Of a stretch of DNA of 64,000 bases, positions 7,560-29,561 are shown one piece after another. Where the stretch lies: the NCBI GenBank assembly GCA_963774275.1, contig CAVZEP010000008.1:43858-107857 (forward strand). The letters run 5' to 3'. Source of the DNA: an uncultured Chloroflexia bacterium (lineage in GTDB: Bacteria; Chloroflexota; Anaerolineae; Anaerolineales; UBA4823). A program made the position numbers and the translations under genes. Positions within the stretch are counted from its first letter, which is position 1; every line of letters starts with the position of its first letter. The notes beneath the pieces were generated by a model. That model was not told where the DNA came from and did no database searches. It worked only from the letters and a program-made list of their open reading frames with translations.

Positions 7560-7934
7560 ATGGCTACAACAGAAGAAAGAATGCGAATATTAAGAATGAT
7601 CCAGGAAGGCAAGATTACTGCTGAAGAGGGCGCCAAGCTGCTGGCTGCGTTGCGCGAGAGCCGCAAGGATGTGCGCACGGTGATCACGTCCACTCGTTCT
7701 GGGAAGGGGATGCTGCGCGTGCGCGTCACCGATATGGTCACTGGAAAAGCCAAGGTCAGTGTAAATCTCCCCATTGGGCTCGTGGATGCGGGGATGAGCA
7801 TTGCCAGTCAGTATGCACCAGGCATTGATTTTGCTCAAATCACTGACGCGATCCGCTCAGGGTCGATGGAAGGCAAGATCGTGGACGTGGTGGATGAAGA
7901 GGACGGTGAACATATTGAAGTATTTATCGAGTAA
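7560..7934 (+). CDS. Soluble paralogue of the previous gene (SHOCT-like motif plus shared C-terminal domain)
   Basis: TTTGGAGG precedes ATG 7560. The N-terminus reads EERMRILRMIQEGKITAEEGAKLLAAL, and the C-terminus (...KIVDVVDEEDGEHIEVFIE) parallels the C-terminus of 6813..7493. Confidence 0.65.
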   Translation: MATTEERMRILRMIQEGKITAEEGAKLLAALRESRKDVRTVITSTRSGKGMLRVRVTDMVTGKAKVSVNLPIGLVDAGMSIASQYAPGIDFAQITDAIRSGSMEGKIVDVVDEEDGEHIEVFIE

Positions 7935-7978
7935 GGGTAAGTCTTGGTTCTCTGATACTTCTTTATTTGGAGGTTATT

Positions 7979-8944
7979 ATGTCTGACGAAAGCATTGAAA
8001 AGACGTTTCAAGTTACTGATCCTGCTCGCCTGAGCATCTCAAATATCCGTGGCTCGATCACCATTTCACCTGGAGAAGCGGGTGTGATTGAGGTCAAAGC
8101 CATCAAGCATGGAAATTTTGACAGCGGCCACTATAGCGTGGAAATGACCCAGGCTTCAGACGGCAGCGTAAGTGTAGAAACCCGCGCGGATGAGGTTTTA
8201 TTCGGATTCCTGTCCCACCCACCCAAGGTGGAGTATTCCGTGCGTGTGCCTCAGGGCATCCATTTAGACGCCTCCTGCGTCAGCAGCACCCTCAATGTGA
8301 GTGGGCTTAAAGGTGTTTTTAAATTAAAAACTGTCAGTGGTGATACCGATCTGACGAACCTATCCGGTCCAACCAAGGTTAAAGGGGTAAGTGGGGATAT
8401 TTCCGGTTCCCATTTGGAGGGCGTTCTGGAGGCGGGCATGGTATCAGGAAGGCTGCGTTTGCTTGAATCGACCTTCCCTAGCGCAGATGCAACCACGGTA
8501 AGTGGTGATTTGATCCTTCAAACCACGCTCTCAGATGGACCCTACTATTTCAGCTCGGTATCGGGTAATGTACGCTTGCTGGTACCTGCGGACACGCACT
8601 GTAACGTGGAACTTAATAGCGTCAGCGGAAGTATTCGGTCTTCACTGCCTGCCACCACCATCCGTATGGGTCATGGGTTAAAAGTCACCCAGATACAAAG
8701 TGGAGGCGTCCCTGTTCGCCTCAAGAGCGTCTCTGGCGGAGTATCGATTGAAACAGAAGGTATTCCTGCTTCTGTTGTTCCGGTCACCTCTCCAGAGACT
8801 GCAGCACCGGTCCCACCTGTCCCTCCATCTCCTCCATTCACGCCAGCACCTGCCCCACTCAGCACTGCAGAAATCCTCCAGCGCATCGAGCGGGGTGAGA
8901 TGACCGTGGATGACGCTATCAAGTTGATGAAAGATCAGCCTTAG
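7979..8944 (+). CDS. DUF4097-like beta-helix protein with Pro-rich linker and C-terminal SHOCT-like motif
   Basis: TTTGGAGG precedes ATG 7979. It has repeated VSGD/VSGS/VSGN units, a PVPPVPPSPPFTPAPAP linker, and a C-terminal STAEILQRIERGEMTVDDAIKLMK. Confidence 0.7.
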   Translation: MSDESIEKTFQVTDPARLSISNIRGSITISPGEAGVIEVKAIKHGNFDSGHYSVEMTQASDGSVSVETRADEVLFGFLSHPPKVEYSVRVPQGIHLDASCVSSTLNVSGLKGVFKLKTVSGDTDLTNLSGPTKVKGVSGDISGSHLEGVLEAGMVSGRLRLLESTFPSADATTVSGDLILQTTLSDGPYYFSSVSGNVRLLVPADTHCNVELNSVSGSIRSSLPATTIRMGHGLKVTQIQSGGVPVRLKSVSGGVSIETEGIPASVVPVTSPETAAPVPPVPPSPPFTPAPAPLSTAEILQRIERGEMTVDDAIKLMKDQP

Positions 8945-9021
8945 CCACAACCTTGTGTGTTAAATAGCATCGCCTCACTTTTGTAAACCTCTCCAGCAGG
9001 TATAATAGCCCTTTGCTTAAT

Positions 9022-10545
9022 ATGAGCAACTCGCAAACTTCCTCCAATCGCCCAACCGGCATGTTCGGTTTTTCCATTGTCTGGGTCGGTCAGATTATCT
9101 CTTTGCTTGGCACCAGCATGACCGGCTTTGCCATGACCATCTGGGCTTACGAAAAGACGAACGCCGCCACTGCCCTGGCTATGGTCGGCTTCTTCTTCGT
9201 GGCACCCATGCTCATCGCATCACCATTCGCTGGTGCTATCGTGGATCGTTCCAATCGCAAGCTGATGATGATGCTGAGCGATATGGCCTCCGGTATTGCC
9301 ACTGTGATTATCCTCATCCTGTATGCATCGGGAAATCTGCAGATCTGGCATCTGTTCATCACCAGTGCCTTCCAGGGGGTGTTCCAGTCCTTCCAATGGC
9401 CTGCCTACTCAGCCGCCATCTCCACCATGATCCCCAAGGAGCAATATGGGCGGGCCAATGGCATGCTCTCGCTGGCAGATACGGCTTCCAACATCTTTGC
9501 GCCTATCCTGGCAGGTTCATTGTTGGGCATTATTGGTTTCTCTGGCATCCTGCTGATCGACCTGGCCACATTTGCATTTGCCCTGGGTGCGTTATTGTTC
9601 GTCCACATCCCTCAACCCAGGATTACCGAGGAAGGGCGACAGGCACAAGGGAATATATTCAAAGAAGCAGCATATGGTTTCCGTTATATTCTGATGAGAC
9701 CATCCCTGCTTGCCCTGCAGCTGGTTTTTCTCGCGGGAAATTTCTTTATTGGCATTCCGGGTGCAGTCCAGGCAGCTATGATCCTGGCAAATACTGGTAG
9801 CAGTGAAAAAGCCCTGGCCTATGTGAACTCGGCTGCGGCAATTGGGGGTGTGGTGGGTGGCCTGGTTATGAGTGCCTGGGGTGGTCCCAAGCGCCGGGTG
9901 CATGGAGTGCTGGTGGGTTGGTTTATCTCCAGCCTGCTCGGTGGTGTGCTCATGGGGTTTGGAAGAACTATTCCTGTGTGGGCAGTTGCCGGCTTTTTTG
10001 GTATGTTTTTTGTACCCATCATCAACGGTTCCAATCAAGCCATCTGGCAGGCGAAAGTCCCACCAGACCTGCAGGGGCGGGTTTTTTCCATCCGCCGGCT
10101 GATTGCCTGGTTTGTCAGCCCGCTGGCCATGCTTATCGCCGGTCCCGTAGCTGATAAAGTGCTTGAGCCTGCCATGCGCAACCCTCAAAGCTTCCTGGCT
10201 TCTTCTCTGGGTTGGCTTATTGGCACAGGGCCTGGCCGGGGCATGGCACTGCTCTTTATTATTGGCGGTGGATTGTGCGCTTTGGTTGTGATCAGCGGTT
10301 ATGCCTTTCGAATTTTACGCGAGGTGGAAACCTTGCTTCCAGACCATGACACGCTCCCTTCTGCCGCAACCGCCGGAGAGCCAGCCCCAGACGAGCGCTT
10401 GACCCGCATGCAGGAATTGCTTGAAGCCCGCAACCATTGGGTCACACAACCCGCATCTCTCGAGCGTGAGCTGGCGCTTAATGCAATCACGAATTCATTA
10501 CGCAAGCTGGGTCATGGGGCATCTATTCCCCCCGAAGCCGCATAG
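9022..10545 (+). CDS. MFS transporter (MFS_3/EntS-like) with a cytoplasmic C-terminal tail
   Basis: It has about 12 hydrophobic segments and the DRSNRK loop motif after TM2. ATG 9022 lies inside the 9013 ORF. Confidence 0.75.
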   Translation: MSNSQTSSNRPTGMFGFSIVWVGQIISLLGTSMTGFAMTIWAYEKTNAATALAMVGFFFVAPMLIASPFAGAIVDRSNRKLMMMLSDMASGIATVIILILYASGNLQIWHLFITSAFQGVFQSFQWPAYSAAISTMIPKEQYGRANGMLSLADTASNIFAPILAGSLLGIIGFSGILLIDLATFAFALGALLFVHIPQPRITEEGRQAQGNIFKEAAYGFRYILMRPSLLALQLVFLAGNFFIGIPGAVQAAMILANTGSSEKALAYVNSAAAIGGVVGGLVMSAWGGPKRRVHGVLVGWFISSLLGGVLMGFGRTIPVWAVAGFFGMFFVPIINGSNQAIWQAKVPPDLQGRVFSIRRLIAWFVSPLAMLIAGPVADKVLEPAMRNPQSFLASSLGWLIGTGPGRGMALLFIIGGGLCALVVISGYAFRILREVETLLPDHDTLPSAATAGEPAPDERLTRMQELLEARNHWVTQPASLERELALNAITNSLRKLGHGASIPPEAA

Positions 10546-11133: not shown

Positions 11134-11327
11134 ATCCCTCTAAAGCTTAACTTATATGAGTTTACTCTCCCGTTAAACACTCTTGGTCGATGCAGCTCGA
11201 CATATATTGTATCTTATTAGCATCATATTTTCTGGCAGGAGCTTAATCATTAGATAAAACTAAAAAAACGCGGTACACTTGTTTTGTGAAAAGTTACACA
11301 GCCCTAGGTTGATTGGAGAAAAATTTA

Positions 11328-14300
11328 ATGAGAAGAATGCGCAAACTGCTCCCTGTTTTGATTCTTGTATTGATCTTTGTTGTTGGGTTACTTCTCACCA
11401 GTCCGACGAAAGCTCAAAATGGCACCATCTGGCTCCCCTTCGATGGCACATCCGAGCCTGCTGAACCATCCCTGGCGCTGCTCAGTTCCAGCCCCTCCCA
11501 GGTTAACCTACAAGCCGTCCTTCCAGGTTCATATGCGGACACGATCCGCGTTGAAGGCACTACCTACACGCGACTGTTGGCTTCGGGATATGGTTATCCC
11601 GCCGTTTACGGACTACCTGAGCTTCCCGTTCTGCGCAGGGAAGTCGAAATTCCCTTCGGCGCTCAGGTTTCTGTTGAGCTCATATCTTCCCAATATACAG
11701 ATAGCACACTGCTGGGGCTTGGTCTAAATCCCATCTACCCCATGCAACCACCTGTCCCTAAAGTGGAAGGTGTCGAAGAAAATCAGCCCTTCATCATAGA
11801 CAGTCAATACTATGCCAATGGGTCGCTCTATCCGTCCAGCGTGATCTCTTTGGGTGAGCCCTATATCATTCGAGGCCATCGCCTCCTGACTGTCGAGATA
11901 TGGCCAGTTGGATATGATCCCATGCAAGGTAGCTTGCGCCTTTATTCCCAGGTGACCTTCCGACTCCACCTCTCCGGCGCAGATATGCCTGCCACAAACA
12001 CTCTGGCAAATCGTTATTCATCGCAGGAGTATGATCTTACTTTATCTGAGCGCGTGCTTAATTACAATCAGGGTCGCCCGCTTGGCGTGAATCAACAGGC
12101 TGGCTACCTGATTATCACAGCCGATGCATATGTTGATGCCATTGTTCCGCTGGCTGATTTACGTCAGAGCCGTGGTTTTGACGTCACCCTGACTCGCCAG
12201 TCTGATATACCCAACGGTACGACCACCGCAGGAATTAAAGCCTACATCCAAACCGCATACGACACCTGGCCTGTGCCACCCTCCTATGTCTTGTTGGTCG
12301 GCGATACCAATACTATCCCCACCTGGACTGGTCCCACGATTGGGACTTCGACGGATCTCTATTACGGTACCATGGATGGAGAATCTGACTGGCACCCGGA
12401 TATTGGACGAGGTCGTTTCCCGGTGCGTTCGATTGCACAGACGACCGCCATGGTGAATAAGTACCTGGCCTATTCCGGTCTCACCGGACAGGAGCCCTGG
12501 CTGAAAACTGCTTCCTTCCCCGCCACCTGTGACAATTACGAGGTCGCCGAAGGAAGCCATAATTATGTCATGGATACCCACACTGCTCCAGGCGGCTGGA
12601 CCGGGACCTTCCCGGTTAATCCCACCCCAGGTGGCGATAAACTCTACTGCATCACCCACGATGCTACCCATGCGGATTTGGTGGAGCAGTTCAATCTGGG
12701 TCGTTGGGCGATTATCTATTCCGGCCATGGCAGTTATAGTGGCTGGGAAATGGACTATACCCCTGCCGATATCCAAAATATTACTAACTACGGCATGTAC
12801 CCTTTTGTTGCCTCTCATGCCTGCCTAAGCGGAGATTACGGCCAAACTGAGGTCTTCGGTGAGACCTGGGTGCTACAGGAGAATAAAGGTGCCCTGGTTT
12901 ACTGGGGCTCTTCCACGTACAGTTATTGGGGTGAAGATGATGTGCTCGAGCGTGTCATGTTCGATTCCCTCTTTGACGATACGACCTCATATCCTGATGT
13001 GGCTACGATGACCGATGCTGGTCTGGCAGGGGTTGAAGCTGCTTACCCCTCCAGTGCCCGCTATTATCGCGAAACTTACAATGTCCTGGGAGACCCGACC
13101 GTCAAGTTGTTCATGGAACCCGAGCTGCCAATCTTTACACTGAGTGCCGAGCCCTCCAGCCTGGAGGTTTGCACCCAGGGTACGCTCACCTCGGATGTCG
13201 TAATTGGCAGCATCATGGGTTATTCATCAACCGTCTACCTTGAAACGGATGAGCCGCCCTTCAATGTCGTTGCCAGTTTCGATCCGTCTCAAGCTACTGC
13301 ACCATACACCTCCACCCTGACGTTGGACGTCTCTTCGGGTGCTCCTGAGGGAGATCACACCCTTACCATCACCGCCACCGATCAGGTCAGCTTCACCATG
13401 CATACCCAGCTCAACCTGCGCATCAACACCGCCTCACCCAACGTACCAACTCTGATCAGCCCGGCAGACGGTGCTACCAACCAGCCATTCACGCCTTCCT
13501 TCGGCTGGGAAAACCAGCTCCTCACCAGAAGCTATAACTTTGAGCTGGCGTCCAGCCCATTGTTTGAGTCCCCCATCGTCATCGAGACTGGCCTGACTGC
13601 TCCCTCCTATACACTGTCAAATCCATTAGCTGGTGGTACCTGTTACTGGTGGCGCACCCAGGCCGCCAATGTCTGTGGCACCGGCGCTTGGGCTGACCCC
13701 TTCCACTTCAGCATCGTTTCCCTGTTCGCTTCATTCATCGACGATATGGAATCGGGTGATGGTCAGTGGACGCATGCAGCCACCCAGGGAATTGACCATT
13801 GGGTAATCTCGGATGATCAATCTCACAGCCCTACCCAGGCCTGGTTTGTTCCAGACGATGGGGATATCACCGACACTCGCCTTTGGAATACTAGTCCCGT
13901 CCTGGTGGGTGAGGGCAGCGTTCTGACCTTTTGGCACCAGTATCAGTTCGAGGGCACAAGCTATGATGGCTCAGTCCTGGAGATTTCAGCCGATGGGGGT
14001 GATTCATGGGTCGATCTTGGGCCATATATCACCGCTAATGGTTACAATGGCACGATATCCTCAGGTTACAGCAACCCTCTGGCAGGTCGGGACGGTTGGA
14101 CAGATGATTTAACTACATGGACGGAAGTGACTGTAGACCTGGGCAGTTTTGCCGGGCAAAGTGTGATCATCCGCTGGCGCTTAGGTTGTGATTCGTCAGT
14201 AGGCGACACCGGCTGGTTCATCGATGATGTACAAATTACCTCTCCTTTGCCACCCAACCCGGCACCAACCCTTTTGACCATTTTCCCCAATTCGGGCGAT

Positions 14301-16049
14301 AGCAGTGAGCCGACCCCGGTCGTGATCACGGGGGAAAATTTCATCGGTTCGCCTGCTTTGAAGCTGGGGGATACCTGGCTGGAATCTGTAGTAGTGGAGA
14401 GTCCAACCACGATCAACGCCATCGTGCCAGCAGGCATGCCGGATGGAGTGTATGATCTGACAATCTATAATGGTGATTGCCAGCAAGCTGTTTTGATTGA
14501 GGCTTTCACGGTTACTTCGGTGCCGGTACCCATTTCCGGACTGGAAGCCACCAACGATAGCCCCACCTATATTGGAGATACAACCCACTTTACGGCCACG
14601 GTAGAAACCGGCAATGGTGTGAGCTATGCCTGGGCATTTGGGGATGGCAGCCATGGCAATGGACGCACTCCCCAGCATCTCTATCCTGACCTGGGGATTT
14701 ATACTGCCATCGTCACAGCCACCAACGTGCTCAATTCTGAGATTGCCACCACCACCGTGACCATCGTCGAAGAGCCTATCACCGGCTTGCAGGCCGTCAA
14801 TGACAGCCCGACCGAGCTGGGTAACCCGACCGCGTTGGCTGCGACCATTGCTACCGGTACCAATGTCACGTATGAATGGGACTTTGGAGATGGCATGGCG
14901 GGCACCGGTGATGTATTAACCCATACATTCTCGTCTGCGGGTCTCTACACGGCAATTGTCACTGCTTTCAATGACGTCGGCTCTGAAAGCGCATCGACGG
15001 AAATCATCATCACGGATGTTCCTATTACCGGGCTAACCGCTGCCAATAGCAGTCCAACCGAGCTGGGCAGCCTCACTACGTTGACTGCCACCATTGAGGC
15101 GGGCACGAACGTCACCTATGCCTGGGACTATGGGGATGGTGCTTCCGGTATGGGTGACCTGACTACCCATGCATATCCTGCCGTCGGTATCTATACCGCC
15201 ATCGTGACCGCTACCAACTCCACCGGTTCAGCTGTATCGGATACCATGCTGACCATCGTAGATGCTCCCATCATTGGCTTGACAGCTTCCAATGACAGCC
15301 CAACTTTACTCGGATACACGACCACGTTGACCGCCACCCTGCTTAACGGTACCAATGTTACCTATGAGTGGAACTTTGGTGATGGCACATCCGGCAGCGA
15401 AGCCGTGGAACCACATACCTATCCAGCAGTGGGCAGTTATACTGCAGTGGTCACTGTTACGAATAGCGTTAGCACAGCTAGCATATCGACAGTCGTAACC
15501 GTCACCGATGTACCCATCACCGGCTTGCTGGCTGCCAATGATGGCCCCACTGAGTTGGGTAACCTGACCACACTGACCGCCACCCTGCTCAACGGTACCC
15601 ATGTTACCTATGCATGGGACTTTGGCGATGGGACGCTGGGTATTGGAGCTGTGGGTATACACACCTATCCAGCCGTGGGCAATTACACCGCCGTGGTCAC
15701 TGCCACCAATGGCATCAGCTCCGAGAGTACATCGACGATCGTTTCGATCGTCGATGTACCCATCACCGGCTTGCTGGCTACTAATGACAGTCCGATGGAG
15801 CTGGGCAACCTGACTACACTAAGCGCAACCATCGTTAACGGCACCCATGTGATCTATACCTGGGACTTTGGCGATGGAACCGCCGGAATCGGCCCAGTGG
15901 TGACGCATCTATATACCGCGGCTGGTGATTACATCGCCACGGTGACAGCCGCCAACTCGATGGGCAATGTGTCTGCAACCACGCCGGTAGTTATCACCGA
16001 GCCGCCGCAGGTGGTTCACTTCACCTACCTGCCAGTGACATTTAGATAA
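11328..16049 (+). CDS. Secreted multidomain protein: peptidase C25 (gingipain-like) catalytic domain, jelly-roll-like domain, IPT/TIG-like domain and six PKD domains
   Basis: There is a signal-peptide-like N-terminus. The C25 pattern reads YLIITADAY...YVLLVGDTNTIPT...DLYYG...GRGRFP, with the His in IIYSGHGS and the Cys in FVASHACLSG. Six WDFGDG-type PKD units follow. Confidence 0.75.
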   Translation: MRRMRKLLPVLILVLIFVVGLLLTSPTKAQNGTIWLPFDGTSEPAEPSLALLSSSPSQVNLQAVLPGSYADTIRVEGTTYTRLLASGYGYPAVYGLPELPVLRREVEIPFGAQVSVELISSQYTDSTLLGLGLNPIYPMQPPVPKVEGVEENQPFIIDSQYYANGSLYPSSVISLGEPYIIRGHRLLTVEIWPVGYDPMQGSLRLYSQVTFRLHLSGADMPATNTLANRYSSQEYDLTLSERVLNYNQGRPLGVNQQAGYLIITADAYVDAIVPLADLRQSRGFDVTLTRQSDIPNGTTTAGIKAYIQTAYDTWPVPPSYVLLVGDTNTIPTWTGPTIGTSTDLYYGTMDGESDWHPDIGRGRFPVRSIAQTTAMVNKYLAYSGLTGQEPWLKTASFPATCDNYEVAEGSHNYVMDTHTAPGGWTGTFPVNPTPGGDKLYCITHDATHADLVEQFNLGRWAIIYSGHGSYSGWEMDYTPADIQNITNYGMYPFVASHACLSGDYGQTEVFGETWVLQENKGALVYWGSSTYSYWGEDDVLERVMFDSLFDDTTSYPDVATMTDAGLAGVEAAYPSSARYYRETYNVLGDPTVKLFMEPELPIFTLSAEPSSLEVCTQGTLTSDVVIGSIMGYSSTVYLETDEPPFNVVASFDPSQATAPYTSTLTLDVSSGAPEGDHTLTITATDQVSFTMHTQLNLRINTASPNVPTLISPADGATNQPFTPSFGWENQLLTRSYNFELASSPLFESPIVIETGLTAPSYTLSNPLAGGTCYWWRTQAANVCGTGAWADPFHFSIVSLFASFIDDMESGDGQWTHAATQGIDHWVISDDQSHSPTQAWFVPDDGDITDTRLWNTSPVLVGEGSVLTFWHQYQFEGTSYDGSVLEISADGGDSWVDLGPYITANGYNGTISSGYSNPLAGRDGWTDDLTTWTEVTVDLGSFAGQSVIIRWRLGCDSSVGDTGWFIDDVQITSPLPPNPAPTLLTIFPNSGDSSEPTPVVITGENFIGSPALKLGDTWLESVVVESPTTINAIVPAGMPDGVYDLTIYNGDCQQAVLIEAFTVTSVPVPISGLEATNDSPTYIGDTTHFTATVETGNGVSYAWAFGDGSHGNGRTPQHLYPDLGIYTAIVTATNVLNSEIATTTVTIVEEPITGLQAVNDSPTELGNPTALAATIATGTNVTYEWDFGDGMAGTGDVLTHTFSSAGLYTAIVTAFNDVGSESASTEIIITDVPITGLTAANSSPTELGSLTTLTATIEAGTNVTYAWDYGDGASGMGDLTTHAYPAVGIYTAIVTATNSTGSAVSDTMLTIVDAPIIGLTASNDSPTLLGYTTTLTATLLNGTNVTYEWNFGDGTSGSEAVEPHTYPAVGSYTAVVTVTNSVSTASISTVVTVTDVPITGLLAANDGPTELGNLTTLTATLLNGTHVTYAWDFGDGTLGIGAVGIHTYPAVGNYTAVVTATNGISSESTSTIVSIVDVPITGLLATNDSPMELGNLTTLSATIVNGTHVIYTWDFGDGTAGIGPVVTHLYTAAGDYIATVTAANSMGNVSATTPVVITEPPQVVHFTYLPVTFR
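14529..16004 (+). repeat. Six in-frame tandem 246-bp coding repeats (PKD domains) inside the C25-family gene
   Basis: Unit starts (P-I-T/S-G-L codons) were read at 14529, 14775, 15021, 15267, 15513 and 15759, an exact 246-bp period. Confidence 0.9.
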
Positions 16050-22091: not shown

Positions 22092-22189
22092 AGTTGTGCT
22101 CCTGATGTTTTCTCAGATGATTTCCATTTTGTACGAGGATTGTAGCATTAATTAATCGTTTTCACGTTGATATGTTTTGGGTGTTGTAG

Positions 22190-22208
22190 GGGCGATCGGT
22201 GATCGCCC
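22190..22208. repeat. GC-rich hairpin element GGGCGATC-GGT-GATCGCCC in an AT-rich spacer
   Basis: A perfect 8-bp inverted repeat was read directly. It is not followed by a clean U-tract on either strand. Confidence 0.6.
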
Positions 22209-22233
22209 TCAAGCTTGTTTTTGTTGGCATCAA

Positions 22234-22308
22234 GGGCGTTCTTTGCCCGAAGTGTCGCGAGTGATTTGTGCGGCGATGCAGGGGCGTTCTTTGCCCGAAG
22301 TGTAGCGA
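22234..22308. repeat. Two 27-bp direct repeats GGGCGTTCTTTGCCCGAAGTGT(C/A)GCGA (22234-22260 and 22282-22308)
   Basis: The copies match at 26 of 27 positions, with starts 48 bp apart. Each contains a small GGGCG/TGCCC hairpin. They look like REP-like intergenic elements. Confidence 0.7.
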
Positions 22309-22508
22309 AATGGTTTTTGAGCGATATGTTGGACCTACGATCTTTGTAGGACTTGGTAATCTTCAACTATCTTTTAAAGCCCTCATCCCCACCGAGGCAA
22401 CCCTCCTTCAGCATCAGATCGATGTAATAATCTGTCAGATTGACGTTATGGTGACTAGGTGATACATTAAAATTGTGTAGGTGAAAATCAATCAGACGAA
22501 TTATAGGG

Positions 22509-25500
22509 CTACTTGGGATTAGGTTCTGTTCCGTTAGAGAGGGGATTAATAGCTAGTGCCCCCTTCGCAGAAAAAGCAGGTTCAAAGGAAATATGCATGT
22601 TTTTATTCATTAACAACCCGTTGAATTTTGATCCAGGACATAGAAATGGTGGAAATCCCTCAGATTCTACAATTGCATATCCAGCTCTTAGGAGAATAAC
22701 TCTGCCTTTCATTCTGACTGGTATAGAGGCATCATTAAAATCCAATGGGTGGAATTCGATAGTGTTTAATTCAATACTACTAAATTCACGCTTCAACGCT
22801 TCATCGAAAACTGTTTTTGCTTCAGTAAAGTTTGAAGACATGAAAAGCATTCCACCAAGAGTTGCTATGAAACGAGGATCCGAGTAACCATATAAAGTAC
22901 TGATCTTGAGTATAGCTATAGCCTCATTATATGATTTATGAAGTTGGGCTATAGCAATCCCATATTCCACGAAAGAGCGGAATTCATTAGGATGATCTCT
23001 TATCACTGGAAATAGTATATCTATGGCATCTTTAATTCTTCCAGATCTTCGGTAAGACCGGCCAAGTAAATATCTTGGAACAATACTTCCCGGAGAGTCC
23101 TCAACAGCCTTTTCCAGAGCTTGTATACATGAAGGTTGATTTCCTAAATAAGATTGGATATTTGACGATTCGATCCATAGGCTGTCTCTAACGCGGACTT
23201 GCCTAAGTCCCTCATCGATAACTCCTTCTGCTTTCGTTATATATTCTGCAAACTCCTCAGATGAGGATAATTTCTTTGCCCATCCGATATAGAGTTGGGC
23301 CAGACCTTGGAAGCAGTATTCGTCCCGGGGGTAGATGGCAATACCTCGCCTGAAGCAGGCTTCACTTTGAGCAAGTCTTCGTCGACCGATATCGTTACTG
23401 TCTGCTGTGAGCGCTAGTTGCATTAAGACCATTCCTCGGGTATGATGGAGAACACGAACATTGGAGTCCAAACTTAATGCTTGATCGATCTGGCCGAGTG
23501 CGAGGTCAACCTTACCCTCTCTCAACAGCATTCGCGCATAGTGTTGTCGGACATATGGACTGTCTGGATCTTTCTTGCATGCAGTTTCAAAGAAACGAAT
23601 TTTGCCATCGAGGGTTCGAATCTGATCTATAGTTCTGTCTGAACGAATAAAGCTTTCAAAAGCCGATTTATCTAGACTATAGTTTAAGTTAAGTCCATTT
23701 AGACCAGTTCTTAGGAGAGAGTTCTTTTCCTCCAAAGCTGCGCAGCGCTCCCAAACGACTGCCGCAATAGTACTATGGCGTGTGCGCGCTGCAAATGCTT
23801 CACCCGCGGCATCAACACATTCATAAATAACAATACCCTCAGTAGAATCTGCTGTACGTTCATAGAGTTCTGTCAGGGGAGTTTCGAGAATTTGAGATAG
23901 GAGAGTGTCTCTCACTAAAGCTCCGTGTTGATGAAAGCAGCATACGGTCAAGTATAATCTTCTGGAAGTCGCGTTGTTGATACCTCGAAATTCATCCTCA
24001 AGTATAGCGTCGAAACTTTTGCCCTCTGTAGCCTCTCTAAGAGCGACAAGCAATTCTTTACCATGTTTTTGTTTGATAACGGCATATTGCATATCTCTGC
24101 TTAAATTGGAAAGTACCCCGAGTTCGTCATGCTTGGCTAGAAAATCAATAAGGCGATAGATTTCGGGATCGCTAAGGGATTCCATCTGATATTCTTTGAC
24201 TGATAATTTGCCATGCCCTTGCCTCCACTCGTTGAGATGTTCACCAAGTACAAACATAGCCGGACGCTTTAAATCTTCAAGTCGATGTAACATCGTATGA
24301 ATTGTTGTGGAATGATCCGTAGCATTATTTATGAAGAAATATAGCTTATTTTCGAAAAGAGTAGTAGCGTACTCAACATCCCCTTCGAGAACTATGCTAC
24401 CGGGGCGTAACATTAGTGTTGGCCCTGCTCTATCCATTACTAGTCTCGATGCTAGCGTCATTAAGGTGGTTGTAACACCATAGCCTGCAGGCGCGAGGAC
24501 TAAGATAGCTCTAGATTTGTTAGATGAACTTGTAGCAAAGTCTAGCAGTTCATCATAGATTGGTTCTTCGATGTCCCTTTCAAAAAGTTCGCGAGAACCA
24601 ACAAGCGCCCAGTTTGGTCGATTCCCCCTTACAAATTCTTGAACATTAGGTGAACCATGAAATGGGGCTTGGTTTATATATTCCCAAGAAGAAAACAAAC
24701 GTGCAGTGGGAGCAGGATTCTTTTCAAAGGCAGGGATAAGATCGGGTGGTATCTCCTTTTCAATAGTTCGGTAACGGCTTGATTCCTGCGGTGCTGAAGA
24801 AATAATAAGGGACGCTGATTCTTGAAATTGCTGGTAGGAGCAATTAATTGACGTTATATTCTTAGCACGAAGAAGCTCATCATCTATGGGATCGGTATTG
24901 GGATCGACACGATAGGATTGAGGTAATTGTGCGGGGTAGAACTCAGCAGAGATTTCGTTGATCAGAATCTTCCAATTAGGATCACGGTTGGAGTAGGCGA
25001 TGTAGAGGATAGGCGATCTAGCAAATTCAATCTTGAGTAGCTCGAAAAGCATTCGACGTTTTTCGCGGAATCGAGAATAGTCATCTTCTGTTATAAGAAT
25101 ATTTGGGTGCTGGGAACCAAACAAAGCGCCATGGAGATGATAAATTGGCACCTCGAAACGTGGATCGTGGCGAACAATTTCTGATGCCAGAGTAACTATA
25201 ACTGGCTTCTGTGGTGGATTTGGTATAAGCTCGTAAGCTCTCTCAATTGTCTCATTGTAATTTGTGGTGAAAATAGCAGCCCACCTAAGTTTAAATAGCC
25301 ATTGGAGTGTTGGGTCTGGCGTGAACCCGGCAAGTCGTTTTTGAAGGAATGCTTCAAGTTCGACTCTTCCATGGCGCAATTCGACAATACCCGCTACTTT
25401 TGATAAATCGGTATCGTTGTGTATCCCTAATGAGAACCCATCTGCAAGACTTCTTGCTAGGGAAGCCGCATCCGGTGCGGGATTACCCTTTGTGTCATGG

Positions 25501-25586
25501 ACGTGATCACCAATGCCAGCACCAAGGAAAAGAACGCATGTGCCAGAATCTATGGCAGTCCGCAGACCAAGAGGAATTTCAACCAT
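22509..25586 (-). CDS. SIR2-like (SIR2_2) domain, degenerate P-loop/STAND-like domain, TPR-like repeats and a small C-terminal domain; candidate single-gene anti-phage protein (1025 aa)
   Basis: SIR2_2 motifs are CVLFLGAGIG, FTTNYNETIE, IYHLHGAL and ILITEDDY. The Walker-A-like block LVLAPAGYGVTTT lacks the Lys. A helical repeat region spans about aa 660-930. GC is ~40%, against ~55-65% for the neighbours. Confidence 0.75.
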   Translation of the reverse strand: MVEIPLGLRTAIDSGTCVLFLGAGIGDHVHDTKGNPAPDAASLARSLADGFSLGIHNDTDLSKVAGIVELRHGRVELEAFLQKRLAGFTPDPTLQWLFKLRWAAIFTTNYNETIERAYELIPNPPQKPVIVTLASEIVRHDPRFEVPIYHLHGALFGSQHPNILITEDDYSRFREKRRMLFELLKIEFARSPILYIAYSNRDPNWKILINEISAEFYPAQLPQSYRVDPNTDPIDDELLRAKNITSINCSYQQFQESASLIISSAPQESSRYRTIEKEIPPDLIPAFEKNPAPTARLFSSWEYINQAPFHGSPNVQEFVRGNRPNWALVGSRELFERDIEEPIYDELLDFATSSSNKSRAILVLAPAGYGVTTTLMTLASRLVMDRAGPTLMLRPGSIVLEGDVEYATTLFENKLYFFINNATDHSTTIHTMLHRLEDLKRPAMFVLGEHLNEWRQGHGKLSVKEYQMESLSDPEIYRLIDFLAKHDELGVLSNLSRDMQYAVIKQKHGKELLVALREATEGKSFDAILEDEFRGINNATSRRLYLTVCCFHQHGALVRDTLLSQILETPLTELYERTADSTEGIVIYECVDAAGEAFAARTRHSTIAAVVWERCAALEEKNSLLRTGLNGLNLNYSLDKSAFESFIRSDRTIDQIRTLDGKIRFFETACKKDPDSPYVRQHYARMLLREGKVDLALGQIDQALSLDSNVRVLHHTRGMVLMQLALTADSNDIGRRRLAQSEACFRRGIAIYPRDEYCFQGLAQLYIGWAKKLSSSEEFAEYITKAEGVIDEGLRQVRVRDSLWIESSNIQSYLGNQPSCIQALEKAVEDSPGSIVPRYLLGRSYRRSGRIKDAIDILFPVIRDHPNEFRSFVEYGIAIAQLHKSYNEAIAILKISTLYGYSDPRFIATLGGMLFMSSNFTEAKTVFDEALKREFSSIELNTIEFHPLDFNDASIPVRMKGRVILLRAGYAIVESEGFPPFLCPGSKFNGLLMNKNMHISFEPAFSAKGALAINPLSNGTEPNPK

Positions 25587-25670
25587 TGGTTGACTCTTAA
25601 GGTAGAGATGATAAGGCGTGTCATATTTACATTACTGTAAAGCGTGAAGCATCTCGTACAATGTCAAAGC

Positions 25671-25683
25671 ATATATATATATA
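25671..25683. repeat. (AT)6.5 dinucleotide repeat in the spacer upstream of the SIR2-like gene
   Basis: ATATATATATATA was read directly, adjacent to a minus-strand TTGACA (25662-25667). Confidence 0.8.
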
Positions 25684-26039
25684 AACAGCAGGTTCATGAT
25701 GATTTTAGACTAGGAACGCAATAATTGCAAGTTATTCAATATTGTATTTTCGTAAAAGATGGACGGATAGAAACCATCCGGAGTAGGATGTATCTATTCT
25801 ATACCAAACCAATAGAAATACTAACTTAACCTAATAACATCATTGAAGATTACTGATGTAGTGTAAATGTGTTTACTCAGCCATCGCCGTATCCTCTATA
25901 TCCTGTTTCAATCAGGATAATGGATAGAATATAAGCTGATTGCTTGGACACACAACCACGCAACTTATCAGCTGTATTCAAGGCTTACTGCTGGCGATCT
26001 ACGGGTGTTTTACTATTCTATTGTGGACGCCATCTATGT

Positions 26040-26654
26040 TTAGGGCGGTCCAATATATGTCCACATACCACAGTCCTGATCAAGTTGTACTTGAAAGTCT
26101 GAAGGGGCGATGTAAATTGTGCCTCCTCCCAAACCAAAAAAATTATCTATGATATTTCCATAACGATCTGATCTTTTCCAGTAGCAGGAATCAATTTGTC
26201 CATTGTTACGCCAAACACCCGGTGCAATATCAACATTGATTAAGTAAATACCTGCGTATTTATCCGCGATCAGAGGACCAAAAACAACAGCTGTTTGAGT
26301 AGCTGCATTTGGAGTTTCTGTCGGTGGGAGTGGAGTGGCTGTTGGTCCTGGTGTTCTTGTTGGTAAAGGCGTGCGAGTGGGTTTTGCAGCCTCTGTTAAA
26401 GCTACTTGTGTTTTATATGCTTTCATATCCCAGGTAGGAGGTATAGATGTGCGCGTTGGACCTGCGGGTGAAGGGGTTGGACCTATAGGTGAAGTTGCCT
26501 GTGGAACTGCTGGTGACGATACTTGTTCCTGTTGGGCAGGCTGTAGAGCTACGACCGTTCCAGCAACCGATGTCGCGACAGTATCAGCAGATAGTGCTGC
26601 TGAACAAGACGTAAGCAAAACAGCTACAACAATTAGAAAATAAACCGATTTCAT
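26040..26654 (-). CDS. Lipoprotein, hypothetical (Pro/Thr-rich linker plus ~90-aa C-terminal domain)
   Basis: It has a signal peptide and lipobox (LLTSC), PT-rich low complexity, and a C-terminal domain with 2 Cys. AGAGGCGGA precedes ATG 26654. Confidence 0.6.
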   Translation of the reverse strand: MKSVYFLIVVAVLLTSCSAALSADTVATSVAGTVVALQPAQQEQVSSPAVPQATSPIGPTPSPAGPTRTSIPPTWDMKAYKTQVALTEAAKPTRTPLPTRTPGPTATPLPPTETPNAATQTAVVFGPLIADKYAGIYLINVDIAPGVWRNNGQIDSCYWKRSDRYGNIIDNFFGLGGGTIYIAPSDFQVQLDQDCGMWTYIGPP

Positions 26655-27037
26655 TTCCGCCTCTTTTCCGATTAATTGTGGATAGTAGTAATTGTGGTAA
26701 TCCCTGAATATTATTATGGCATATAAAACAAATCATGTCACTGCGATGGGATATCAGTGCAGCATGGAGGTGAGAAATCAAACACCAATGTGTCGCGCCT
26801 ATTACCTTCGTATCACGATACCAAAATATAAAGATTAGCCGTCCTTAATCACCCATTTTTTCTAAACATTTAGAGGAGAAGGTATGATTGGAAATCCACG
26901 TTTCGGGTTTATTGCTATTTACAGCTGTGATTTCAACCCCCGGTAGATAATTTTTTATATCCGCTACCCTGTACCCTCCAGCCCACTTAGGTGGGTTTCA
27001 CCCTCTCCCCCACGCGAACCCACACTGGCAATCCTGC

Positions 27038-27493
27038 TTAGCTATTTTCCTCCTCCAACTTCTTCCTCACCCAGCCCAGCGCCTCACCTGGCATCCCGAT
27101 CCTCAGCCCACTCCTTACCGCGATTTCCGGGTCATCCATGAAATGGACCCGATTAAATGTCACCAGATAATCCACCTTCGCTTTCATTGCTGCCAGCAGG
27201 ATGGGCACATCCGCAGGGTGGGAAATCAAACCCAGGTTCGCCCTCACCTCCTCTGGGGTCGGGTCGCGATTGATCTTTGCCTTTGATTCCAAAATGGCCG
27301 TCCTCAGGTCGGCTAACGCTTTTGGCACCTTCCGTGCGATTGCTCTTTCGGTTTCTGTCACCACCTGCTCCGAGATTGTGATGGTGATCTGTTCACACTC
27401 GGCCAATAGCAGCAATGCTCGTGCTGCGCCTGTGGCAGATATAACCCCCGCAAACAAGGCGCTGCTGTCCAGGAATAGGTTAATTTCCCGCAT
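27038..27493 (-). CDS. vapC: PIN-domain ribonuclease toxin (VapC-like)
   Basis: The acidic PIN pattern is FLDSSALFAG...ISEQVVTETERA...DVPILLAA...DYLVTFNRVHF. It overlaps the upstream antitoxin gene by 14 nt. Confidence 0.75.
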   Translation of the reverse strand: MREINLFLDSSALFAGVISATGAARALLLLAECEQITITISEQVVTETERAIARKVPKALADLRTAILESKAKINRDPTPEEVRANLGLISHPADVPILLAAMKAKVDYLVTFNRVHFMDDPEIAVRSGLRIGMPGEALGWVRKKLEEENS

Positions 27494-27758
27494 AATGTTC
27501 CTGGTAGTAGCGTTCTCGTTCCTCGTCCAGTGCCCTAAAGATATCGTCTACTGAAACTCCTTCCTCCGCCATTACTTGTGCCACCCGATTCCCTAAACGA
27601 TCTACTTTTGTCACGACCGGTGTAAGCAGGAACGATCCATCACCCAGGTCAATCAACGTGATAATATCCCCTTCATCCAATCCATATTTTCGCCGTAGCT
27701 CGATCGGTAGCGTTAGTGTGCCTTTTCCACGAATTTGAATGGTAGCTGTTGCAGTCAT
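27480..27758 (-). CDS. vapB: AbrB/SpoVT/MazE-fold antitoxin (VapB-like)
   Basis: It has the swapped-hairpin motif IRGKGTLTLPIELRRKYGLDEGD and lies immediately upstream of the PIN gene. Confidence 0.75.
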   Translation of the reverse strand: MTATATIQIRGKGTLTLPIELRRKYGLDEGDIITLIDLGDGSFLLTPVVTKVDRLGNRVAQVMAEEGVSVDDIFRALDEERERYYQEHYAGN

Positions 27759-28133
27759 TTCAGCAATTCTCCTTTTCGGTATTTCCGTAATTCCATCTCA
27801 ATTATATCACTCATCCCTGTCCCTGCTCGTAAATATCACTCGCCATGCTGCGGACAAAGAATATACTTGGTGACAACAAGTCCGGGATCAGCGAAACTCG
27901 GCTACAAAATCTTTGCTTATAAAATCGTATATATATTTTTCAGATCACGTTCTGTGTATATCGACAGAAAGCACCATTTTCAGGATAGCGGAGAATTATT
28001 TCGCTTTATAAAGATTGAGGCAGTCTTAATAAAGTAAATATTCCAGTGCGCTCATGCTAACACTTGACTTTTATTAGAAAATCCTGTAATATTTGAACCA
28101 GTTGTCAGGTTTATCCTGACAACCAGTGCAAAT

Positions 28134-28721
28134 ATGGACAAAGGAGATTTCCTCACTTCTATATTGCGTTCTAACAAGACTGTCTTTTCCTCCAAAGACA
28201 TAGCTTTGCTGTGGCATGATCCTGGTACATCAGCAACCAGGGAGCGTTTATCCTATTACATAAAAAAAGGAGATTTATATAGAATCCGGAAAGGGTTATA
28301 TGCCAAAAGCCAGGACTATAACCGGCTAGAACTGGCAACGCGGATATATACCCCATCCTATGTGAGTTTTGAGACGGTATTAGCCAGGGAAGGCCTTATA
28401 TTCCAATATTATGAGAAGATTTTTGTTGCTTCTTATTTAAGCAGGGAAATTACTGTTGATGGACAAGCCTATTCATACCGAAGGATAAATACCAGGATGT
28501 TGGTCAATTCTATCGGGGTAGAGCACATCCTTGAGACCTCGATTGCTGGCAAAGAACGGGCTTTCTTAGACACCTTGTATGCTAACGCCGATTACCAATT
28601 CGATAATGTCCGAGGCCTGGCTTGGGATAAGGTTTTTGAAATCTTGCCAATTTATGGCAATCAACGGTTGGATAAAAAAGTTAATCGCTTGTATAAGGCC
28701 TTAGACGACCAATTATTATGA
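28134..28721 (+). CDS. AbiEi-family antitoxin/transcriptional regulator (type IV TA)
   Basis: The N-terminal wHTH carries ...RERLSYYIKKGDLYRIRKGLYAK (the G-L-x-R-x-x-K/R-G-x-Y signature). It has a 4-nt ATGA overlap with the next gene. Confidence 0.7.
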   Translation: MDKGDFLTSILRSNKTVFSSKDIALLWHDPGTSATRERLSYYIKKGDLYRIRKGLYAKSQDYNRLELATRIYTPSYVSFETVLAREGLIFQYYEKIFVASYLSREITVDGQAYSYRRINTRMLVNSIGVEHILETSIAGKERAFLDTLYANADYQFDNVRGLAWDKVFEILPIYGNQRLDKKVNRLYKALDDQLL

Positions 28722-29407
28722 CCCTGGATATAGCCACTCACAAGACCATATTGTTCCAGATCTTAAAAGGCATTTACGCCGATACCAGCATTTCCCCTTT
28801 TTTAGGGTTTAAAGGCGGCACTGCAGCCTTGATGTTTTATGGTCTGGACCGTTTTTCAGTAGATCTGGATTTTGATTTGTTAGATGAAAATCAAGAAGAA
28901 TATGTTTTTAATCGAATTATTGAGATTGTAAGGAATTTCGCCACTGTTAAAGAGGCTCGGAGAAAACGGTTTAATTTATTTATATTGCTATCCTATGAGG
29001 ATAAAGCCCGCAACATAAAAGTGGAAATAAACCGCAGGCAATACGGCTCCAGATACGAGATAAAAACATATCTGGGGGTTTCCATGCAAGTAATGGTTGT
29101 TGAAGATATGTTTGCCCATAAATTAATGGCGATGTACGAACGGATTGAGAAGACCAGCAGGGATATCTATGATGTGTGGTTTTTCCTTAAGTCCCGTACC
29201 CCGATCAATAAAAGAATCGTAGAAAATCGTGCCCAGATGCCTTTTAACCAATTGGTAGAGAAATGTATCAGGCAGCTCGAAAAAATGAATAATCGCCGTA
29301 CCTTAACCGGTATCGGCGAACTCTTGACCCTCAGCCAAAAAGATTGGGCTAAAGCTAAACTTCGAGAGGAAACCATTGCTTTATTGAAGCTCAGGATAGA
29401 GAGCTGA
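28718..29407 (+). CDS. AbiEii/AbiGii-family nucleotidyltransferase toxin (DUF1814)
   Basis: It carries the FKGGTAALMFYGLDRFSVDLDFD nucleotidyltransferase motif. GC is low (~40%). Confidence 0.75.
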   Translation: MTLDIATHKTILFQILKGIYADTSISPFLGFKGGTAALMFYGLDRFSVDLDFDLLDENQEEYVFNRIIEIVRNFATVKEARRKRFNLFILLSYEDKARNIKVEINRRQYGSRYEIKTYLGVSMQVMVVEDMFAHKLMAMYERIEKTSRDIYDVWFFLKSRTPINKRIVENRAQMPFNQLVEKCIRQLEKMNNRRTLTGIGELLTLSQKDWAKAKLREETIALLKLRIES

Positions 29408-29561
29408 ATTTAAAATCATCCTCACTGCTTGGCAGGATGGTTTGAAACGGCTTATTTCTGTGTAGTTATAACAGCTCGAATAAACAGCAATCTATCTATT
29501 AACTAATTATCATGATCTTAACATCCCACTCTGGGATGTTTTCGTCCCCCAGGATATAAAA

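Follow-up and report, generated by a model that had tools for sequence, protein, structure and literature searches.

Can a STAND switch work without the Walker A lysine? This question is raised by a gene located on the minus strand of a 64,000-nucleotide stretch of DNA (the window) from an uncultured Chloroflexia bacterium (GenBank contig CAVZEP010000008.1, positions 43,858 to 107,857 of the forward strand). The gene is an open reading frame (ORF) of 1025 codons at 22509..25586 (minus strand), and its product is a SIR2/nSTAND5/TPR/cold-shock-OB protein whose family constitutes a natural experiment on this question. A first-pass annotation, made from the sequence alone, had described an isolated gene of the Avs (AVAST) design and had proposed that it encodes an abortive-infection sensor. 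The ORF, motifs, domains and base composition given in that annotation were recovered in the present analysis, whereas the isolation of the gene, the MalT type of the NTPase and the description of the C-terminal tail as an extra were not. The protein is a SIR2 NOD-like receptor (NLR) of the Avs type, but its STAND clade is a different one, its NTPase-TPR-OB module resembles that of SAMD9, and the Walker A lysine has been lost throughout its clade. Our preferred reading, to which we assign a probability of roughly 0.6, is that the gene encodes a single-gene Avs-type abortive-infection NADase, the NTPase of which serves as a non-hydrolysing or nucleotide-independent assembly scaffold.

Domain architecture and the SIR2 effector

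An AlphaFold2 model of the full protein was built on 52 homologues and had a predicted local distance difference test score (pLDDT) of 87. From the N terminus, the model contained a Rossmann-type SIR2 domain, a helical linker, a P-loop alpha/beta domain, helical and winged-helix domains, ∼300 residues of paired helices and a beta domain. The domains were located as follows.

24801..25586, minus strand: SIR2 effector domain, aa 1-262; Pfam SIR2_2 at aa 104-246, E = 3.6e-18
24642..24800, minus strand: helical linker between SIR2 and the NTPase, aa 263-315; AlphaFold2 helices at 269-300; poorly conserved, with 47% pairwise identity
24177..24641, minus strand: STAND nucleotide-binding domain, aa 316-470; Pfam nSTAND_NTPase5 (PF25199) at aa 316-460, E = 1.2e-26
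23682..24176, minus strand: helical and winged-helix domains of the STAND module, aa 471-635; AlphaFold2 helices, then a strand pair at 586-602
22764..23681, minus strand: TPR-like helical repeat sensor, aa 636-941; Pfam TPR_14, TPR_19, TPR_17, TPR_2 and ANAPC3 at aa 661-935; AlphaFold2 paired helices at 637-941
22527..22763, minus strand: C-terminal cold-shock-domain-like OB fold, aa 942-1020; five AlphaFold2 strands at aa 943-1017

The effector-STAND-repeat design with a SIR2 effector, as proposed in the first-pass annotation, was evident from these domain searches and from Foldseek matches to EfAvs5, SAMD9, an AVAST5 filament and DSR2 (see below). The match to PF25199 scored 93.7 bits against a gathering cutoff of 34 and covered profile positions 1 to 143 of 145. 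A STAND NTPase was, therefore, present as expected, but assignment to the MalT type was ruled out, as the window protein matched neither MalT nor AAA_16 in Pfam. The TPR-like nature of the helical repeats was supported by both the Pfam matches and the model.

The beta-rich C-terminal region had been regarded as an addition to this design. Distant full-length relatives belonging to the sister clade gave Pfam CSD matches at the same C-terminal position (2e-9, 6e-7 and 7e-5), and the family C-terminal profile aligned end to end with Bacillus subtilis CspB (22 bits). The tail is, as modelled, a cold-shock-type OB fold and part of the family architecture rather than an add-on. Pairwise identity by domain was 55% for SIR2, 52% for the nucleotide-binding domain, 57% for the helical and winged-helix domains, 56% for the TPR region and 43% for the cold-shock tail. 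Conservation of the TPR sensor equals that of the SIR2 effector, and such an unusually conserved sensor suggests a conserved ligand.

Four SIR2 motifs were found at the positions given in the first-pass annotation, namely, CVLFLGAGIG (aa 17-26, of which aa 22-26 form the GAGIG NAD-binding loop), FTTNYNETIE (106-115), IYHLHGAL (148-155) and ILITEDDY (163-170). The catalytic codons are those of N109 (25260-25262), H152 (25131-25133) and D169 (25080-25082). All three residues were invariant in the 52 aligned homologues and the GAG loop was nearly so; hence, the SIR2 domain of the window protein looks catalytically competent from its residues. Searches of PADLOC-DB v2 (E ≤ 1) produced matches to the SIR2 region only, these being to ThsA (3e-18; profile positions 15 to 213 of 478), PDC-S25, Dsr2 (2.5e-8) and LmuA. 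The family profile matched a ThsA-like chain (7uxt, 3e-25) and KomC (2e-16) among the PDB sequences, and the NCBIfam Dsr2 equivalog was matched over the SIR2 region only, at 30 bits against a cutoff of 1400.

Degeneration of the nucleotide-binding site

The P-loop of the window protein, APAGYGVTT (aa 365-373, 24468-24494), is atypical, as had been noted, and is without the Walker A lysine, having V371 (24474-24476) at this position. Among the 52 aligned homologues, the P-loop consensus was [GA][PS]AGYG[V/T/I/M][ST]T; a lysine was present in one homologue and V, T, I or M in the other 51. The lysine was absent from 23 of 23 close-clade representatives, clustered at 50% identity, with a detectable P-loop, while 56 of 60 sister-group representatives had a canonical Walker A motif, GxAGxGK[ST]. 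These results indicated that the window's clade is defined by the loss of this lysine. This loss, together with the cold-shock-type OB fold of the tail, upheld the suggestion that the P-loop and the C-terminal domain mark an uncharacterised variant.

Further changes were present at other nucleotide-contact positions. N420 (24327-24329) places an asparagine at the position of the Walker B aspartate, as in 5 of the 52 proteins (the window protein and 4 of the 51 others, including the nearest homologue, P0002). H450 (24237-24239) replaces the conserved arginine of a GERxNEW motif, a change seen in 2 of the 52; the sister clade has its [ST]xR sensor-1 motif at the aligned position, and the arginine is a putative sensor-1. 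Of the 52 proteins, the window protein alone combined all three changes. Judged by its sequence, the degenerate P-loop of this protein is incapable of canonical catalysis. Given the loss of these nucleotide-contact residues, the most likely role of the NTPase is a structural one in oligomerisation; a nucleotide may still be bound, as it is in SAMD9L, or the site may be empty in the window copy.

The window copy could be impaired, as it is the most degenerate of the 52 proteins at these residues. A decaying or regulatory-dead allele, in which the switch is no longer licensed and the gene persists as an inert passenger of its islet, would account for the unique combination of three substitutions and would be in keeping with the dependence of EfAvs5 defence on Walker A and Walker B residues (PMC11897194). 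We nevertheless consider this explanation quite unlikely. The ORF is intact over its full length, free of frameshifts and stops, and has retained the SIR2 catalytic residues and nearly all family-invariant positions. N420 is shared with other homologues, the nearest included, and the loss of the lysine is common to all 23 of the detected clade representatives, which argues that the clade works without this residue. SAMD9 family proteins are likewise functional though without the lysine (PMC5445408).

Comparison with Avs5, DSR2, ThsA and the sister clade

Foldseek comparison of the full model with the PDB placed EfAvs5 first (9jap_A, E = 4.9e-23, 913 columns), followed by human SAMD9 (∼1e-19, ∼1170 columns), an AVAST5 filament (2e-14) and DSR2 (1e-11). 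Global template modelling (TM) scores were low (0.2 to 0.36), which is expected when multi-domain proteins are compared in different conformations.

Published Avs5 proteins consist of SIR2, nSTAND3 and repeats and need the Walker A lysine and the Walker B aspartate (PMC11897194, PMC12931631); in EfAvs5, K379 (Walker A) and D426 (Walker B) are required for defence (PMC11897194). Their triggers are phage proteins, T7 gp1.7 and jumbo-phage JADA, the SIR2 NADase being switched on by filamentation or by a phage protein, and NAD+ is depleted (PMC11897194, PMC12931631). EfAvs5 forms filaments, and it binds ATP but has no ATPase activity (PMC11897194), and the C-terminal repeat domain of PaAvs5 is poorly conserved (PMC12931631).

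The window protein resembles EfAvs5 and PaAvs5 (PDB 9jap and 9nc9) in having, on one polypeptide, an N-terminal SIR2_2 domain with catalytic Asn and His, a STAND module and a C-terminal helical-repeat sensor. It differs in several respects. The NTPase of Avs5 is nSTAND3 (PF20720), while that of the window protein is nSTAND5 with zero nSTAND3 matches (Pfam, E ≤ 1). V371 and N420 occupy the positions of the lysine and aspartate found in Avs5, and the family profile matched 9jap over SIR2 only. The solved Avs5 chains, of 833 and 764 residues, are shorter than the window protein by ∼150 to 250 aa, and the cold-shock-type OB domain at the end of the window protein was not seen described for them. 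Its sensor is well conserved, whereas that of PaAvs5 homologues is not (PMC12931631). As it has neither an nSTAND3 domain nor a Walker A lysine, and as the PADLOC run gave no Avs match, the protein was not filed as Avs5. It falls outside the published Avs5 family, although, by analogy, it most likely works like one.

Similar comparisons were made with DSR2 and ThsA, both of which have a SIR2_2-type catalytic domain. DSR2 is also ∼1000 aa long with a helical sensor, but it combines SIR2 with a HEAT-like sensor and has no NTPase, in contrast to the STAND NTPase present here. Thoeris ThsA has a SLOG domain and needs a TIR-domain partner, ThsB, encoded nearby; the window protein has no SLOG domain, and neither the islet nor the conserved-neighbour comparison of 40 homologue loci yielded a TIR gene.

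The sister clade (∼1030 aa; UNC84816.1, for example) has the same architecture and length as the window protein, with 22% to 30% identity over the full length, and is likewise annotated as just "SIR2 family protein." It differs in keeping Walker A (56 of 60) and Walker B and in having a tail in which Pfam CSD is recognisable.

Comparison with SAMD9 and SAMD9L

A second AlphaFold2 model was generated without the SIR2 domain (aa 296-1025; pLDDT, 77). With this model, SAMD9 became the first Foldseek match (3e-14, ∼900 columns), ahead of EfAvs5 (7e-9, 597 columns). This parallel, the closest for the NTPase-TPR-OB module, was absent from the first-pass annotation. The structural alignment with SAMD9 had 12% identity and a global TM score of ∼0.25, and no SAMD9 chain was present among the best 60 of 81 family-profile matches to PDB sequences (E up to ∼0.1), a set that may lack the 2026 SAMD9 entries.

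According to Mekhedov et al. (2017), the core of SAMD9 family proteins consists of an N-terminal AlbA_2 domain, which some members have lost, a variant Sir2, a STAND P-loop, TPR and a cold-shock-like OB fold, and another residue stands in place of the Walker A lysine (PMC5445408). The Sir2-like, STAND P-loop, TPR and cold-shock-like OB domains are in the same order in the window protein and in SAMD9 (PDB 9zjr and related entries; PMC5445408), and the Walker A lysine is absent from both SAMD9 and the window's clade. The replacement differs, being V, T, I or M in the window's clade (GYG[VTIM][ST]T) but glycine in SAMD9 (GGT/S); as the sister clade keeps the lysine, the loss in the window's clade may be independent of that in SAMD9. 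The window protein is also without a SAM or AlbA_2 nuclease domain, nothing preceding a SIR2 domain that starts at the GAG loop. It has kept the SIR2 catalytic residues, while the Sir2 of SAMD9 is a "variant" regarded as a scaffold. A general resemblance to SAMD9 was already known, since SIR2-STAND bacterial proteins ("Avs5 from Desulfobacula," "Avs6" and "Avs9") and hundreds of uncharacterised prokaryotic proteins have been published as SAMD9 structural analogues, with the Avs5 sensor clustering with SAMD9 (PMC12680541, PMC12803255). A0A1F9N8W4, the "Avs5 from Desulfobacula" (PMC12680541), was not among the family cluster members that were looked up.

The presence of a CSD-type OB domain raises the prospect of a nucleic-acid trigger, whereby the OB tail, perhaps with the TPR groove, would bind phage single-stranded RNA or DNA or a replication intermediate and so bring about oligomerisation of a SAMD9-like sensor. 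Sister-clade members have near-canonical RNP1/RNP2-like motifs (e.g., SFGFIKRDG...IVFVH), SAMD9 is the best match for the STAND-TPR-OB module, and SAMD9 oligomerises when it binds double-stranded DNA or double-stranded RNA (PMC12015307). An invariant ligand would also fit the strong conservation of the sensor across phyla. In the window's clade, however, the RNP-like aromatic motifs are degraded (AGYAxIE / FLCPGS) and the OB domain is the least conserved of the domains. The OB fold of SAMD9 is required for oligomerisation but dispensable for DNA binding (PMC12015307), while SAMD9L binds intact NTP without turnover and its OB domain touches the Sir2 of the partner protomer (bioRxiv 10.64898/2026.02.01.703102). 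Moreover, the two characterised Avs5 triggers are both proteins (PMC11897194, PMC12931631). A nucleic-acid trigger is, on this evidence, unlikely.

Distribution and genomic context of the family

A word-indexed search detected at least 486 full-length homologues, essentially all of ∼1020 aa with the same domains, with identities of 50% to 67% among the best 120. An exhaustive HMMER scan of 1.84 billion representatives clustered at 50% identity found 398 clusters at E ≤ 1e-30, which fell into two groups, namely, a close clade with 35% to 50% identity to the window protein and a broad sister group of ∼1030 aa with 24% to 30% identity. Relatives were present in Chloroflexota, Desulfobacterota, Acidobacteriota, Bacteroidota, Planctomycetota, Actinomycetota, Bacillota, Pseudomonadota, Verrucomicrobiota, Nitrospirota, Binatota and Eremiobacterota and in two archaeal records (one Nitrososphaera and one Thermoplasmatota). 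The spread of the family is patchy over more than 12 phyla and resembles that produced by horizontal gene transfer. The nearest homologue was 67% identical, compared to 84% to 85% for relatives of the acetyl-CoA synthetase, a housekeeping gene of the window. The few synthetase relatives that carry a name come from Anaerolineales or Chloroflexota MAGs, which makes an Anaerolineales bacterium the probable host. No record of the exact window protein was present in the contig index searched, and a DNA search of Escherichia coli genomes gave no match to the gene. Source annotations of the relatives read just "SIR2 family protein," "P-loop NTPase" or "TPR repeat protein." In the searchable literature, the nSTAND5 (PF25199) family as such, its lysine-less clade and its conserved cold-shock tail were not found; the eLife paper defining nSTAND clades names only nSTAND1 and nSTAND2 in the passages retrieved.

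Neighbouring genes were compared by all-against-all BLAST of 392 ORFs located within 5 kb of 40 homologues. No conserved neighbour or partner gene was detected in these 40 loci, the largest ORF cluster being present in 8 loci and on either side of the gene; hence, the gene was taken to be a single-gene unit. ORFs within 3 kb of homologues included 5 resolvases, 3 tyrosine integrases, type I methylases, type IIG enzymes, RT-DUF3800 reverse transcriptases, TnsD/TniQ, a Schlafen-type helicase and a McrB N-domain. In a crude comparison, PADLOC families numbered 205 near the homologues (within 3 kb) versus 106 far from them (6.5 to 10 kb), almost all of the far ones being matched by one ORF each.

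Individual loci were of various types. One homologue had integrases on both sides and a complete type I restriction-modification system directly downstream (L089), and in L087 an integrase lay immediately upstream. A DDE transposase and resolvases (L086), a D5-type primase-helicase (L088) and ParE and HicA modules (L084) were found near others, while in L083 an RVT_1 reverse transcriptase (8368-9687) directly preceded the homologue among ORFans. Sister-clade copies were present on conjugative Klebsiella pneumoniae IncFII KPC-2 plasmids, between insertion sequence elements, and on Acinetobacter, Vibrio, Psychrobacter and Hymenobacter plasmids. One of these relatives, UNC84816.1 (L090, CP043374.1 30279-33413), has 1044 aa, a GYAGSGKS Walker A motif and a CSD-like tail and is located near qnrS1; a similar gene was present on eight other Klebsiella plasmids. 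Family members are, in summary, solitary, horizontally mobile and often defence-adjacent, and the variable, mobile or defence-type settings of these solitary genes agreed with the context anticipated for a defence gene.

As a separate observation, a DUF3800 protein (7826-8605) directly preceded the homologue in L001, and two RT-DUF3800 (DRT-type) matches were present among the near neighbours in the PADLOC search. Proximity of a reverse transcriptase or DUF3800 gene to the homologues may be a recurrent association.

Some homologues were located among metabolic genes (L081). Such settings, the high conservation of the sensor across phyla and the frequency of TPR-NTPase fusions in bacterial signal transduction (a point made in the review of PMC5445408) would be accommodated by a non-immune signalling or stress sirtuin, in which a host cue, perceived through the TPR and cold-shock domains, would prompt SIR2 to deacylate or ADP-ribosylate a target within the cell. 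This role is very improbable. The SIR2 domain is of the SIR2_2/ThsA-DSR2-KomC type, the characterised members of which are NADases. The patchy, transfer-like distribution, the atypical GC content and the frequent mobile-element or restriction-modification neighbours also argue against it, as does the lack of a conserved partner or substrate gene in the 40 loci.

Proposed mode of action

The abortive-infection NADase reading leads to a scheme in which the trigger, closed resting state, assembly, NADase activity and phage protection are proposed by analogy with Avs5, DSR2, ThsA and SAMD9. In an uninfected cell, the protein would be closed and autoinhibited, with the TPR/cold-shock module packed on the NTPase. 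A conserved infection cue, most likely a phage protein and less likely a nucleic acid, would be bound by the TPR-OB sensor. Binding would free the STAND module, whereupon protomers would join by SIR2-SIR2 and NOD-NOD contacts of the kind found in EfAvs5 filaments and in the dimers of SAMD9/9L. Assembly would switch on SIR2, and the resulting hydrolysis of NAD+ would abort the infection. In the window's clade, the NTPase is expected to be a non-hydrolysing and possibly nucleotide-free oligomerisation scaffold rather than an ATP-driven switch, due to loss of the Walker A lysine throughout the clade and of the Walker B aspartate and the putative sensor-1 arginine in the window copy.

Several observations weigh against this reading. 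Among the 52 aligned proteins, it is the window copy that has the most degenerate set of nucleotide-contact residues (V371, N420 and H450). The sensor is as conserved as the effector, unlike the situation reported for PaAvs5 (PMC12931631), and PADLOC-DB v2 (E ≤ 1) recognises the SIR2 part only and gave zero matches to Avs models. Some homologues are located among housekeeping genes, L081 being a largely housekeeping or metabolic setting, and the enrichment of defence families near homologues (205 versus 106) is qualitative and not a statistical test. The family was absent from 50,697 phage records in a protein search, and no experiment on any nSTAND5 SIR2 protein was found in the searchable literature.

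A further-reaching proposal, which we regard as doubtful, is that the window's clade comprises NLR-like receptors without any nucleotide control, switching by ligand-driven assembly alone, and that, among prokaryotic lineages, the nSTAND5 superfamily stands nearest to the Sir2-NTPase-TPR-OB core of animal SAMD9/9L, to which it may be ancestral, with SIR2 still active.

The design principle is established, and a link to SAMD9 is already in print for related proteins; the lysine-less clade, together with a bacterial model for SAMD9-type regulation, is worth an experiment. If active, the protein would represent a widespread SIR2-NLR defence gene that is not flagged by PADLOC-DB v2, with hundreds of sequence clusters, many phyla and relatives on clinical Klebsiella plasmids. 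The same Walker A question arises for human SAMD9/9L, in which disease mutations fall in this module. With its presumably easily read NADase output, and a lysine-containing sister clade for comparison, a small bacterial protein could provide a tractable system in which to study SAMD9-type regulation and the part played by the C-terminal OB domain, and the Klebsiella plasmid protein UNC84816.1 is a tractable relative for experiments.

The low-GC islet and other features of the window

The gene is of low GC content, as had been reported from sampled lines, with a GC of 0.431 and a third-position GC (GC3) of 0.35; the corresponding values for the GH4 gene next to it are 0.597 and 0.73, and the remainder of the window is ∼53% GC. 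The long minus-strand ORF is flanked by more than 400 bp on either side, in agreement with the first-pass annotation: the 3′-side flank (22092-22508) has 417 bp and a GC of 0.44, the 5′-side flank (25587-26039) has 453 bp and a GC of 0.36, and neither contains an ORF of more than 72 aa. The gene is not, however, isolated, as the low-GC pocket of ∼22.1 to 29.6 kb also holds a lipoprotein-like ORF, a PIN/MazE-like pair and an AbiEi/AbiEii pair. The features of this pocket were as follows.

22092..29561: low-GC islet; GC 0.43 versus ∼0.53; bounded by GH4 (GH4/SIS sugar genes) and acyltransferase genes
25702..25730, minus strand: sigma-70-like promoter candidate, TTGCAA-17-TAAAAT, ∼115 nt upstream of the ATG; from a consensus scan and weak evidence
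25764-25780, minus strand: terminator-like hairpin upstream of the promoter candidate
26040-26654, minus strand: lipoprotein-like ORF of 204 aa; signal peptide, lipobox-like LTSC and a long Pro/Thr-rich linker; GC3 0.26
27038-27493, minus strand: PIN_3 toxin; Pfam 8e-11
27480-27758, minus strand: MazE/AbrB-type antitoxin, overlapping the PIN_3 gene; Pfam 4.5e-9
28134-28721, plus strand: AbiEi antitoxin; Pfam 1.9e-5
28718-29407, plus strand: AbiEii nucleotidyltransferase toxin; Pfam 1.3e-19

The AbiE and PIN/MazE pairs form, with the SIR2 gene, a small defence/toxin-antitoxin islet. No integrase homologue was identified among the scanned islet ORFs of at least 60 aa, and the window contained no tRNA genes and gave zero matches in an Rfam scan. 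No convincing repeats flanked the islet, the direct repeats found being short and chance-like. The number of promoter-like sites was not above that expected from shuffled sequence.

The 204-aa ORF matched no Pfam family. It was considered as a component of the system and rejected; the DUF4145 protein encoded next to the nearest homologue is not related to it. It resembles a lipoprotein gained by horizontal transfer, without relation to the SIR2 gene. The intergenic region that separates the 3′ end of the SIR2 gene from the GH4 start contains two copies (22231-22260 and 22279-22308; 93% identical and 48 nt apart) of a 30-nt element with a GGGC...GCCC hairpin, which could be terminators or operator sites.

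Elsewhere in the window, an 873-aa protein encoded at 39605-42226 (plus strand) matched a MalT-like TPR region and a LuxR/GerE helix-turn-helix, the matches being confined to these C-terminal parts, and has no connection with the SIR2 gene. The window also encodes two very large proteins of secreted type, a gingipain-like peptidase C25 with six PKD domains at 11313-16049 (plus strand) and a PKD/Ig-domain protein at 51197-54688 (minus strand).

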